A stretch of DNA of 35,772 bases, from assembly GCA_019566835.1 (NCBI GenBank), contig GCA_019566835.1_3045.2, one strand, 5' to 3'. Origin of the DNA: a phage. The position numbers were made by a program, and so were the translations under genes. Under the pieces are notes generated by a model. It saw only the letters and a list, made by a program, of their open reading frames with translations, made no database searches and was not told the DNA's origin. Below, piece by piece: positions 10,975 through 11,647 of this stretch. Every line of letters starts with the position of its first letter. Position 1 is the stretch's first letter.

Positions 10975-11082
10975 TCAAGGAGTATAAAATCCAAATGCAG
11001 TTGTTGACCATCCCATCCAATACGGAAAATTTGCACCAATGTAAAACATAAGAATATAAAACCAAATGTTTAGTAAATTCAT
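10975..11082 (-). CDS. Tiny hydrophobic peptide (35 aa)
   Basis: MNLLNIWFYILMFYIGANFPYWMGWSTTAFGFYTP. ATG overlaps the stop of the 65-aa ORF (TGATG). Confidence 0.35.
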   Translation of the reverse strand: MNLLNIWFYILMFYIGANFPYWMGWSTTAFGFYTP

Positions 11083-11279
11083 CATTTTACACCATTCCAA
11101 ATTGTTTCAACTACGGATTTTAAACCATTTTGATGAATATCCATTCCGACTACCGCCATCAAATAGATTCCAACTACAACTGAACCTAAGGCAAAAATCA
11201 GCATGAAAATGAATAAAGCCGGAAAAATATTATCGAAAAACCATTCAATAAATGTAAAAGCATTGCGTTTACGCTTCAT
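11082..11279 (-). CDS. Small membrane protein (65 aa)
   Basis: Start taken at MKRKRNAF with SD GAGGAAAAT; one predicted transmembrane helix. Confidence 0.55.
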   Translation of the reverse strand: MKRKRNAFTFIEWFFDNIFPALFIFMLIFALGSVVVGIYLMAVVGMDIHQNGLKSVVETIWNGVK

Positions 11280-11286
11280 ATTTTCC

Positions 11287-11400
11287 TCACATAAATCCAA
11301 AGTAAACGTTTAATACATCAATCATTAAAACGATTGGGAATATACTCAAAACTATTAGTATTATAACTACATTCCATATAGCTTTAATAATCTTTTTCAT
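11287..11400 (-). CDS. Tiny membrane peptide (37 aa)
   Basis: MKKIIKAIWNVVIILIVLSIFPIVLMIDVLNVYFGFM with SD GGAGGAA; sits directly downstream of an early promoter. Confidence 0.5.
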   Translation of the reverse strand: MKKIIKAIWNVVIILIVLSIFPIVLMIDVLNVYFGFM

Positions 11401-11428
11401 TTTCTGTTCCTCCGTAGTTGATAGGGTA

Positions 11429-11458
11429 ATAGTACCACGGAAGAACAGTCTTGTAAAC
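11429..11458 (-). promoter_or_regulatory. T4-type early promoter
   Basis: Minus strand reads GTTTAC, 18 nt, GTGG-TACTAT. Confidence 0.6.
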
Positions 11459-11465
11459 AACTTTT

Positions 11466-11564
11466 TTAAAAATATTCGTAATAAATGTGAATACCAACTA
11501 CTACCGCTGAAACCTGTGCAACCCACCATGCACAAGCAATAAGTACAGAATTTAAAATTTTCAT
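11466..11564 (-). CDS. Tiny hydrophobic peptide (32 aa), candidate
   Basis: MKILNSVLIACAWWVAQVSAVVVGIHIYYEYF with SD GAGGT; overlaps the promoter UP region. Confidence 0.25.
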   Translation of the reverse strand: MKILNSVLIACAWWVAQVSAVVVGIHIYYEYF

Positions 11565-11647
11565 AATAACCTCATTACAAAAGTAAATGTTAAACAAATT
11601 ACTGGAATACTAATTAACCAAACAAAACACCACCATAGTGAACTCAT
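11561..11647 (-). CDS. Tiny hydrophobic peptide (28 aa), candidate
   Basis: MSSLWWCFVWLISIPVICLTFTFVMRLL; ATGA overlaps at both ends. Confidence 0.25.
   Translation of the reverse strand: MSSLWWCFVWLISIPVICLTFTFVMRLL

Follow-up and report, generated by a model that had tools for sequence, protein, structure and literature searches.

The five short minus-strand ORFs crowded between denB and ndd in this phage correspond to the T4 genes ndd.6, ndd.5, ndd.4, ndd.2a and ndd.2, and their frames are under purifying selection. They lie in a window of 35,772 nt (the whole stretch of DNA that was analysed) from the genome of a Tequatrovirus (T4-like). Even in T4, which has been studied more closely than any other large lytic phage, roughly half of the genes are without known function. 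We consider it almost certain that the five frames are real coding genes equal to ndd.2-ndd.6, and likely that the overall account holds as well, according to which this block encodes early membrane peptides and, more tentatively, these have an accessory role at the host membrane.

All genes of the region are on the minus strand, in the order denB, an 87-aa ORF, ndd.6, ndd.5, ndd.4, ndd.2a, ndd.2, ndd.1 and ndd (Table 1). The five ORFs are co-oriented with the early genes, and the flanks were confirmed by Ndd, gp52 and the GyrB-like gp39. The region matched 507 phage records at 80–99%, and the ORF names are given in the annotations of RB51, RB68 and T4. Compared with T4, protein identities range from 91 to 100%, and order, strand, promoters and overlaps are alike. 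All five proteins matched PHROG or Pfam profiles (E = 1e-17 to 1e-30), including Pfam DUF7248 for ndd.2a with a score of 71.5 bits (cut-off 27), and UniProt holds ndd.2, ndd.2a/ndd.3, ndd.4, ndd.5 and ndd.6 as P39244, P39245, P39249, P39247 and P39248, respectively.

Table 1. Features of the denB-ndd interval (positions refer to the window)
Feature	Coordinates	Strand	Description
T4 early-type sigma-70 promoter (predicted, promoter scan)	11942..11970	-	TTTACA, 17 nt, TG-extended TACTAT
87-aa soluble ORF	11644..11907	-	RB51ncORF272c / RB69ORF270c family, PHROG 2390; SD before ATG 11907, -6.4 kcal/mol
ndd.6	11561..11647	-	28 aa, MSSLWWCFVWLISIPVICLTFTFVMRLL; PHROG 8851, E = 1.6e-17
ndd.5	11466..11564	-	32 aa; PHROG 5011, E = 3.6e-26; SD GAGG
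Second T4 early-type promoter (predicted, promoter scan)	11429..11457	-	TTTACA, 17 nt, TG-extended TACTAT
ndd.4	11287..11400	-	37 aa; PHROG 3098, E = 5e-21; SD GGAGG, strong
ndd.2a, full length	11082..11279	-	65 aa; PHROG 2401, E = 7.5e-30; Pfam DUF7248, E = 5.5e-20
ndd.2	10975..11082	-	35 aa; PHROG 4135, E = 6e-24
ndd.1 (context, not among the five)	10751..10966	-	71-aa acidic soluble protein; PHROG 2183

The initial annotation had listed five ORFs here, and all were recovered exactly as given. It had also described them as below or near the usual annotation thresholds, which is true of gene callers: in one T4 assembly, Pyrodigal called neither ndd.4 nor ndd.6 and scored ndd.2 at 3.3. Yet these are not unannotated novelties, because ndd.2-ndd.6 have been catalogued for decades and are found in GenBank, UniProt, PHROGs and Pfam. 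Their annotation is patchy, and standard gene callers can drop genuine genes of 28–37 codons. The name ndd.6 is used in the annotations of T4, T2 and RB68. In the T4 reference, ndd.2a is split into “ndd.2a” and “ndd.3” due to one missing G that is present in other T4 sequences, whereas our phage and most relatives possess a single ORF of 65 aa.

Sequence variation in the five ORFs was examined among 16 relatives. Variable sites were distributed over codon positions 1, 2 and 3 as 15/10/53 (53 of 78 at the third position, p = 6e-10), and in ndd.5 as 1/1/11. There were 50 synonymous vs 28 non-synonymous changes, with 20% synonymous changes expected (p = 4.5e-17), corresponding to a crude dN/dS of ~0.14. 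Four of the six indels among these relatives are located at or beyond ORF ends; the remaining two are the 1-nt deletion of the T4 reference and a 2-nt insertion at the 3′ end of ndd.6. The frames are intact in ~490 Tequatrovirus genomes. A second in-frame ATG of ndd.2 at position 11085 is replaced by ATA in many relatives, which identifies 11082 as the conserved start. In T2, ndd.2a contains a nonsense codon; hence, at least this gene is dispensable without obvious harm. The density of the ORFs, previously judged unlikely to arise by chance, was compared with dinucleotide shuffles. The five ATG-initiated ORFs, each 28 aa or longer, together occupy 96% of the strand, a packing matched by none of the shuffles (0/2000 reached 85% coverage, maximum 81%); five or more ORFs occurred in 14/2000 shuffles and four or more TM-like ORFs in 2/2000.

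Searching 50,697 phage genomes by tblastn, we found ndd.6 in 648 records, 154 of them at ~50% identity, including RB69, and ndd.4 in 597 records, including phages of Pectobacterium, Enterobacter and Edwardsiella at ~61% identity. Counts for ndd.2a and ndd.2 were 524 and 519, the latter including 25 Klebsiella phages at ~45% identity. All 491 records with ndd.5 were at least 90% identical, so this family is limited to Tequatrovirus. The other four families exist in further T4-like genera at 40–65% protein identity, although the DNA itself can no longer be aligned there. Without exception they occupy the denB-to-ndd interval, as in RB69, PM2, VR25 and a Klebsiella phage. Across genera, residues W6, W10, I14, P15 and I17 of ndd.6 are invariant, as are G52-L-K-S-V56 and I60-W-N-G63 of ndd.2a, whereas ndd.4 and ndd.2 share the conserved motifs IWN...IFP.V..ID and N.PYW.GWS, respectively.

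Thus, the check named beforehand for these ORFs, frame conservation across related phages, was passed in the third-position bias, the dN/dS ratio, the Tequatrovirus genomes and the occurrence of four of the five families in other genera. The same results bear on the possibility that the block consists of chance ORFs in an AT-rich promoter or spacer region, or of leader ORFs passing ribosomes to ndd.1 and ndd. The ORFs are indeed very short, their Pyrodigal scores are poor or absent, and published T4 data include neither a detected protein nor a knockout phenotype. Such non-genes would not show the observed codon-position bias and dN/dS, nor the packing that shuffled sequence fails to reach, nor motifs that persist where the DNA is unalignable. 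A scan of the whole window against the known Rfam families yielded none above threshold, which leaves a reading as RNA elements without support. We therefore attach hardly any probability to a non-coding explanation.

The stop and start codons overlap or abut in the way expected of a coupled operon. ATGA overlaps connect the stop of the 87-aa ORF with the start of ndd.6, and ndd.6 with ndd.5, whereas a TGATG overlap connects the ndd.2a stop with the ndd.2 start. Overlaps of both types among several of the five ORFs had been noticed in the initial annotation. ndd.4 and ndd.2a are separated by 7 nt, with the ndd.2a SD overlapping the ndd.4 stop, and this overlap of the SD with the preceding stop is common to the 7- and 8-nt spacers between cistrons. 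Four of the five starts are preceded by SDs with duplex energies of -5.2 to -9.5 kcal/mol (-9.5 for ndd.4), against a background mean of -1.7 kcal/mol; of all ATGs, only 7% reach -6. This agrees with the earlier view that the frames are SD-preceded. The SD of ndd.6 is weak (-2.7 kcal/mol); translation of this gene therefore probably depends on coupling.

The gene immediately upstream, the 87-aa ORF, is annotated at 264 nt in its RB51 and T6 counterparts. An alternative reading of 120 aa (to position 12006) was rejected as probably over-extended, as PHROG 2390 matches only residues 34–120 and an SD precedes ATG 11907. This ORF is present in our phage, whereas in T4 it is reduced to 8 codons; the remnant, MKIAEIEL, keeps the ATGA junction to ndd.6, which is conserved in T4 and RB69. 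Like the weak SD of ndd.6, the retention of this remnant hints indirectly at coupling.

Two T4 early-type promoters were predicted. The first, which closely follows the denB stop, precedes the 87-aa ORF, ndd.6 and ndd.5. It lines up base for base with the promoter between nrdC.9 and nrdC.8 of T4, of which the -35 (GTTTAC) and -10 (TACTATA) elements are annotated in U76612. T4 carries this same element, too, upstream of ndd.6. The second is located within the 65-nt spacer between ndd.5 and ndd.4 (11401–11465), which is conserved in 16/16 relatives and matches further early intergenic regions of T4 in multiple copies. By this promoter layout, the genes are arranged in two putative polycistronic units, one with the 87-aa ORF, ndd.6 and ndd.5, the other with ndd.4, ndd.2a, ndd.2 and ndd.1, the latter being the next gene after ndd.2 and preceded by the SD GAGGTG (-6.9 kcal/mol). 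What had been described as one coupled chain is hence real with regard to its overlaps, but the promoter spacer splits it in two. In the mechanism we propose, host RNA polymerase would transcribe both units within the first minutes of infection; ribosomes would load at the strong SDs of the 87-aa ORF and ndd.4 and pass on to the downstream cistrons, and ndd.6 would be translated mainly by termination-reinitiation at its ATGA junction.

In T4 itself, transcripts of ndd.2-ndd.6 were assigned to the early class (PMC9697503 Table S2). In the T4 proteome, the protein class of all five is given as NA (Class_P), with no peptide detected by mass spectrometry, and the ndd.1 protein was detected early (PMC9697503). 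Small hydrophobic peptides are poor targets for mass spectrometry. A literature search for T4 ribosome-profiling data returned nothing relevant.

The patterns of presence and absence differ between phages: RB69 has ndd.6 only and PM2 ndd.4 only, VR25 has ndd.6, ndd.4 and ndd.2a, the Klebsiella phage has 4-like and 2-like genes, and L011 has ndd.6, ndd.4, ndd.2 and ndd.2a. Judging from this distribution, the peptides behave as independent modules, of which each genus keeps a different subset. A single hetero-oligomeric membrane complex, such as a channel, a superinfection-exclusion or a lysis-timing device with its stoichiometry set via translational coupling, would account for the co-occurrence of all five genes, tightly linked and partly overlapping, in the ~490 Tequatrovirus genomes. 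Overlapping stop and start codons are typical of stoichiometric complexes, and those found here would fit. Outside Tequatrovirus, however, the families assort independently and ndd.5 is absent, and within the block a promoter splits the chain. We reject the single complex on account of this patchy phyletic distribution and regard it as quite improbable.

Searches for relatives of known function gave none for the five proteins in Pfam, PHROG and NCBIfam, nor for ndd.2a in the PDB. A Pfam family exists only for ndd.2a (a DUF) and for none of the other four, NCBIfam yielded nothing significant, and the PDB sequence search with ndd.2a returned only chance matches to TM segments (E > 5). Motif scans for ndd.2a and ndd.6 in 185,579 bacterial and archaeal species genomes found no confirmed relatives, ruling out, at detectable similarity, that these two are host-derived or host mimics.

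The description of the peptides as hydrophobic and aromatic-rich is borne out by GRAVY values of 0.68–1.88 and F+W+Y contents of 14–33%. Each possesses one hydrophobic helix and mostly a basic N-terminus, and all are within the size range (up to ~65 aa) and single-helix layout of small inner-membrane proteins. Four peptides reach 2.2–3.1 in their best 19-residue hydropathy window, compared with ~1.3 in ndd.2, which has no charges, 33% F+W+Y and a weak hydrophobic core (1.29). ndd.4 combines its helix with the basic N-terminus MKKIIK. In ndd.2a, the N-terminus is likewise basic (MKRKR), the one hydrophobic helix is long, and the C-terminal tail is conserved; a single-sequence AF2 model of this peptide shows one helix from residue 5 to 64 (pLDDT 90). 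Based on hydropathy, the positive-inside rule and this model, the ndd.2-ndd.6 peptides are likely membrane-inserted and single-pass. Each would cross the host cytoplasmic membrane with its single helix, ndd.4, ndd.2a and ndd.5 probably with the N-terminus inside according to the positive-inside rule.

Database labels suggest other locations. “Outer membrane protein” and “periplasmic protein” appear as product names in T4, RB68 and PHROGs, and ndd.5 carries a lipobox-like LIAC at residues 8–11, which would be consistent with secreted, outer-membrane or periplasmic proteins or lipoproteins. However, signal-peptide cleavage of peptides of 28–37 aa would leave nothing for an outer-membrane protein, and the labels resemble the output of old automated predictions of localisation; the propagated label “naphthalene 1,2-dioxygenase” for ndd.2 is plainly wrong. 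With only seven residues before the Cys, ndd.5 lacks room for a lipoprotein signal peptide of normal length, for which reason we reject its lipoprotein reading. No lipobox-like sequence occurs in the other four, and in none of the five does a lipobox [LVI][ASTVI][GAS]C end a signal peptide of normal length. Export beyond the inner membrane is thus highly improbable. A function as holin or antiholin was dismissed in view of the early-type promoters, the early class in T4, neighbours that are denB and ndd instead of an endolysin, and C-terminal flanks with 0–2 charges, whereas holins are expressed late, lie next to the endolysin and carry a charged, hydrophilic C-terminus behind their TM segment(s).

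Within the inner membrane, the peptides could act as “monkey-wrench” toxins that perturb or depolarise the membrane non-specifically early in infection and thereby aid host shut-off. TisB, Hok, Ldr, Ibs and ShoB are short hydrophobic single-helix type I toxins, and the ndd.x peptides resemble them, or pinholins, in size, hydrophobicity and the single helix. Unlike these toxins, the ndd.x peptides are encoded in operons behind early phage promoters and display residue-specific motifs; among the known Rfam families, no antisense-RNA partner is evident. T4 depends on an energised membrane up to lysis, so early depolarisation would work against the phage itself. Kutter et al. report that numerous small immediate-early genes of T4 kill the host upon cloning (PMC6071114), which would suit a toxin. 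Conservation, in contrast, is motif-specific and not merely hydrophobic, as in SIP.IC of ndd.6, IFP.V..ID of ndd.4 and the extramembrane GLKSV..IWNG tail of ndd.2a, which points to specific contacts. A toxic function, suggested by resemblance, appears unlikely.

In T4, the five genes proved dispensable in the laboratory. They were scored as “Not Fit” upon CRISPRi-ART knockdown (PMC11879866) and as “Non-essential” upon HIDEN-SEQ transposon insertion (10.1101/2025.11.20.689424), with no phenotype on K-12, with RexAB, RnlAB, CBASS or DarTG1/2, or in minimal medium (PMC11879866; 10.1101/2025.11.20.689424), and they lie inside the deletable saDelta9 region (PMC6071114). Purifying selection and retention in hundreds of isolates, together with dispensability in the laboratory, form the signature of accessory genes for host range or counter-defence; the peptides would accordingly confer an advantage on natural hosts and none on laboratory strains. 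As the most likely role, put forward tentatively and by analogy with the neighbouring Ac protein, we suggest independent accessory micro-proteins, each binding and modulating an inner-membrane protein of the host or of a prophage. Possible, if rather doubtful, is the more specific version in which every peptide is dedicated to inhibiting or modulating one inner-membrane machine of the host or of a prophage, and one of them is the factor by which the saDelta9 region boosts the synthesis of phosphatidylglycerol in the T4-infected host (PMC6071114). Candidate machines include an efflux pump, a phospholipid-synthesis enzyme and a membrane-embedded abortive-infection effector. If the peptides are such dedicated modulators, the 0.7-kb block would be a compact toolkit of five phage membrane micro-regulators; with specific membrane targets found, they could provide inhibitors of minimal size against bacterial membrane proteins.

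Several known systems illustrate the accessory role. AcrZ, MgrB, MgtS and KdpF are bacterial inner-membrane regulators of 30–65 aa with a single TM helix that exert their effect on a larger membrane protein by binding to it. They resemble the ndd.x peptides in size and helix number, no homology was found, and partner binding by the latter is proposed by analogy. Gp11 of the Staphylococcus aureus phage PhiNM1 is likewise a small phage membrane protein expressed early, and it targets host membrane-associated enzymes, binding MurG and DivIC (PMC11237401); it is growth-inhibitory, belongs to a phage and a host that are unrelated to those considered here, and has no sequence relation to ndd.x. Closer at hand are T4 Ac (acridine sensitivity protein, 51 aa) and gp52.1 (46 aa), neighbours of ndd.x in the same deletable block, which are also small, early, non-essential, hydrophobic predicted inner-membrane proteins. 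Neither has sequence similarity to the ndd.x peptides, and Ac, in contrast to them, has a phenotype, acriflavine sensitivity. According to a published proposal, Ac enters the membrane and there blocks the AcrAB-TolC pump (10.1101/2025.06.30.662393; PMC13250531).

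We found 507 phage records matching the 1.3 kb around the five small ORFs at 80-99% identity, nearly all of them Tequatrovirus (T4-like) phages of Escherichia, Shigella or Yersinia. The names ndd.6, ndd.5, ndd.4, ndd.2a and ndd.2 were taken from the annotations of RB51, RB68, T2, T6 and T4; each of the five ORFs matches one PHROGs family (E = 1e-17 to 1e-30), and the Pfam family of ndd.2a is DUF7248. All genes around them lie on the minus strand. Their identity and coding status can be regarded as settled with near certainty: they are real genes that were already known from earlier catalogues and hence not new.

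Features of the ndd.x region and its neighbours
Feature	Position	Strand	Details
gp52 topoisomerase subunit	8354-9682	-	Pfam
Ndd	10232-10690	-	Pfam, E = 1e-95
ndd.2	10975-11082	-	35 aa
ndd.2a	11082-11279	-	65 aa
ndd.4	11287-11400	-	37 aa
P2, sigma-70-type site	11457-11429	-	TTTACA, 17 nt, TG-extended TACTAT
ndd.5	11466-11564	-	32 aa
ndd.6	11561-11647	-	28 aa
P1, sigma-70-type site	11970-11942	-	TTTACA, 17 nt, TG-extended TACTAT
DenB	11988-12545	-	name from annotated relatives
GyrB-like gp39		-	Pfam; neighbour gene

The initial annotation, which had recognized genes here, was correct and careful; it had placed all five minus-strand ORFs to the nucleotide. It had called the peptides very hydrophobic and aromatic-rich, in agreement with GRAVY values of 0.68-1.88 and aromatic contents of 14-33%, and each contains one hydrophobic 19-residue window. 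The density of frames indeed exceeds chance: none of 2000 dinucleotide-preserving shuffles reached 85% strand coverage (observed, 96%), while 14 of 2000 held at least five ORFs and 2 of 2000 at least four TM-like ORFs. Existing annotation is uneven: neither ndd.4 nor ndd.6 is called in a Pyrodigal-based T4 annotation, where ndd.2 scores 3.3, and many annotated records lack ndd.6 or ndd.2.

The five ORFs are truly coding. When 15 close relatives were aligned to the window, the variable sites within the five ORFs were distributed over codon positions 1, 2 and 3 as 15/10/53 (chi-square p = 6e-10), and distinct codon changes comprised 50 synonymous vs 28 non-synonymous ones, with 20% expected to be synonymous (p = 4.5e-17). 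The crude dN/dS of 0.14 equals that of the soluble neighbour ndd.1. Four of the six indels in the interval lie at or beyond ORF ends; the other two are a 2-nt insertion at the extreme 3' terminus of ndd.6, seen in a single metagenomic contig, and a deletion in the 65-aa ORF (ndd.2a) of the T4 reference. The check set beforehand, frame conservation in related phages, came out positive: with each peptide as query, tblastn gave full-length, uninterrupted matches to 488-495 records of Tequatrovirus. We give next to no credence to the reading of the five as non-genes or leader-only ORFs.

The start-stop overlaps reported initially are present, as ATGA at the junctions of the upstream ORF with ndd.6 and of ndd.6 with ndd.5, and as TGATG between ndd.2a and ndd.2. 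The gap between ndd.4 and ndd.2a measures 7 nt, and the SD of ndd.2a overlaps the stop of ndd.4. For ndd.2, the start chosen at 11082 is the conserved one, because the alternative ATG at 11085 reads ATA in many relatives. The overlaps do not make one coupled string, however: sites P1, past the denB stop, and P2, inside the ndd.5-ndd.4 spacer, divide the chain into two early units, P1-87-aa ORF-ndd.6-ndd.5 and P2-ndd.4-ndd.2a-ndd.2-ndd.1, the second of which probably extends past ndd.1 into ndd. Since no terminator-like site was found between the two units, read-through from P1 into the P2 unit is likely. Each site aligns with the promoter between T4 nrdC.9 and nrdC.8 (U76612: annotated -35 GTTTAC, -10 TACTATA), and the 65-nt ndd.5-ndd.4 spacer also matches several further T4 early intergenic regions. 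The surrounding sequences form two near-identical early promoter cassettes (11395-11475 and 11902-11990, minus strand; GTTTACA...GTGGTACTAT...CTATCAACT), the former, downstream copy running on into ACGGAGGAACAGAAAATG, identical to the T4 nrdC.8 start. Several early genes carry this repeated promoter-plus-RBS module, through which early regions could recombine with one another.

The claim that the frames are preceded by SD sequences holds for four of them, with SD-anti-SD duplex energies of -6.3 (ndd.5), -9.5 (ndd.4), -6.2 (ndd.2a) and -5.2 kcal/mol (ndd.2) against a background mean of -1.7; a value of -6 is attained by only 7% of all ATGs. The SD of ndd.6 is weak (-2.7 kcal/mol). Given this weak SD and the ATGA junction kept by the T4 remnant described below and by RB69, termination-reinitiation is the likely route of ndd.6 translation. 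The junction consists of TTGA with a good SD in VR25 and of a 9-nt spacer with SD in two IMG/VR phages. The upstream gene is probably 87 aa long, because PHROG 2390 matches just residues 34-120 of the mechanically called 120-aa ORF, which spans P1, and the internal ATG at 11907 is preceded by a GGAG SD; the 120-aa length was therefore rejected. The SDs of the 87-aa ORF and ndd.4 are of GGAG type, a motif that T4 RegB cleaves; cleavage there would fit a rapid shut-off of the early messages.

Between denB and ndd.6 lies a variable cassette site (11644-11907, minus strand; 3497-3525 in T4 NC_000866). This phage, RB51, T6 and RB69 carry the 87-aa ORF, T2 and RB27 a different ORF of 68 aa, and G50 both. 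Only an 8-codon remnant, MKIAEIEL, is left in T4, joined at an ATGAAA direct repeat; along with the promoter and SD, it retains the ATGA in which ndd.6 starts.

All five peptides are probably inserted in the membrane as single-pass proteins, judging from their sequences. N-flanks are basic in ndd.4 (MKKIIK...), ndd.2a (MKRKR...) and ndd.5 (MK...) and C-flanks neutral or acidic, for which the positive-inside rule predicts an N-in/C-out topology; ndd.6 has a single Arg near its C-terminus and ndd.2 no charged residues. A single-sequence AF2 model of ndd.2a consists of one helix (residues 5-64, mean pLDDT 90), which fits a TM helix running on into the conserved tail. Databases would place such peptides in the outer membrane or periplasm, a very improbable location: a lipobox-like motif (LIAC, residues 8-11) occurs only in ndd.5, and the 7 residues before it are too short for a canonical signal peptide, so we rejected the lipoprotein and outer-membrane labels. 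The LIAC Cys is invariant across all relatives examined.

Beyond Tequatrovirus, tblastn against phage records recovered 154 more records for ndd.6 (~50% identity; RB69-type Mosigvirus and others), ~100 for ndd.4 (60-80%; Pectobacterium PM2, Enterobacter CIP9, Bp7 and Edwardsiella phages), 30 for ndd.2a (<60%; VR25, CJ20 and Aeromonas phages), 25 Klebsiella phages for ndd.2 (~45%) and none for ndd.5. In each distant genome examined, the homologues sit in the denB-ndd interval. Retained are W6, W10, I14-P15 and I17 in ndd.6, IWN...IFP.V..ID in ndd.4 and N.PYW.GWS in ndd.2; in ndd.2a the extramembrane C-terminal GLKSV..IWNG persists and the TM segment drifts. These patterns point to residue-specific conservation in the four peptides and not to generic hydrophobicity. 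That the five are non-specific membrane toxins seems unlikely to us. Scanning 185,579 bacterial and archaeal species genomes for the motifs of ndd.2a and ndd.6 revealed no relatives of either, and all matches among viral contigs were T4-like genomes or fragments thereof. Each genus retains a different subset (RB69 ndd.6 only, PM2 ndd.4 only, VR25 three), and one IMG/VR contig carries four of the five families in changed order. This argues for independent modules and against one obligate complex, of which the peptides are quite improbable subunits.

Kutter et al. (2018) listed ndd.1-ndd.6 as 'products unknown' inside the saDelta9 deletion, which runs from 52.1 to denB; saDelta9 T4 is viable with ~50% yield, the deletion abolishes infection-induced stimulation of phosphatidylglycerol synthesis, and several genes of the region are thought to be membrane-located (PMC6071114). 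Wolfram-Schauerte et al. (2022) reported early transcripts for T4 ndd.2, 2a, 3, 4, 5 and 6; the corresponding proteins went undetected, unlike Ndd and Ndd.1 (PMC9697503 Table S2). All ndd.x ORFs scored 'Not Fit' in CRISPRi-ART (PMC11879866) and 'Non-essential' in HIDEN-SEQ (TA sites hit 86-100%), with no ndd.x hit under RexAB, RnlAB, CBASS, DarTG1/2 or minimal medium (10.1101/2025.11.20.689424). For neighbouring Ac (51 aa), membrane insertion and a block of AcrAB-TolC have been proposed (10.1101/2025.06.30.662393; PMC13250531), and Gp11, an early small membrane protein of a staphylococcal phage, binds MurG and DivIC (PMC11237401). The five ORFs lie in a block that holds many host-interaction genes (ac, stp, ndd, denB, rIIB/rIIA). 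This setting, together with the motif-specific conservation, near-universal natural retention, dispensability on K-12 and independent assortment between genera, makes independent accessory micro-proteins, each acting on some membrane target of the host or a prophage, the best-fitting reading, which we put forward tentatively. What the five ORFs still offer is the question of function and lessons for annotation.

In codon 2 of the 65-aa ORF (codons 1-2, window 11274-11279), one G is missing from the T4 reference (NC_000866/AF158101), which reads atgaaCGt vs atgaaGCGt in T4T, 'T4 wild' and the recent assembly OZ209023; a reference error or stock mutation is probable. As these three other T4 sequences carry the G, the 26-aa T4 'ndd.3', a singleton in PHROGs, is an artefact read out of frame, and the 40-aa 'ndd.2a' is the product of the one real gene, the 65-aa DUF7248 protein, truncated to an internal Met. 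T2 (NC_054931), a classic laboratory phage, has a nonsense mutation in codon 33 of ndd.2a (…FALG*VVVG…, equivalent to window ~11181-11183), and because of this premature stop the gene appears inactivated. Wrong labels have also propagated: peptides of 28-37 aa are called 'outer membrane protein' or 'periplasmic protein', and several RefSeq records label ndd.2 'naphthalene 1,2-dioxygenase'.

Between ac (~9820-9975) and stp we identified an extra hydrophobic ac-like ORF of 51 aa (9989-10144, minus strand), paralogous to Ac with a common ...SSVF.QA.AQG... core; neither T4 nor RB51 has it, and it is present in ~48 records at ≥95% identity (Sf22, KNP5, phage 132). Finally, a 606-aa ORF (16232-18052, minus strand) with HATPase_c, DNA_gyraseB and TOPRIM_C domains is an undivided large topoisomerase II subunit, whereas in T4 this subunit is encoded by two genes, 39 and 60.
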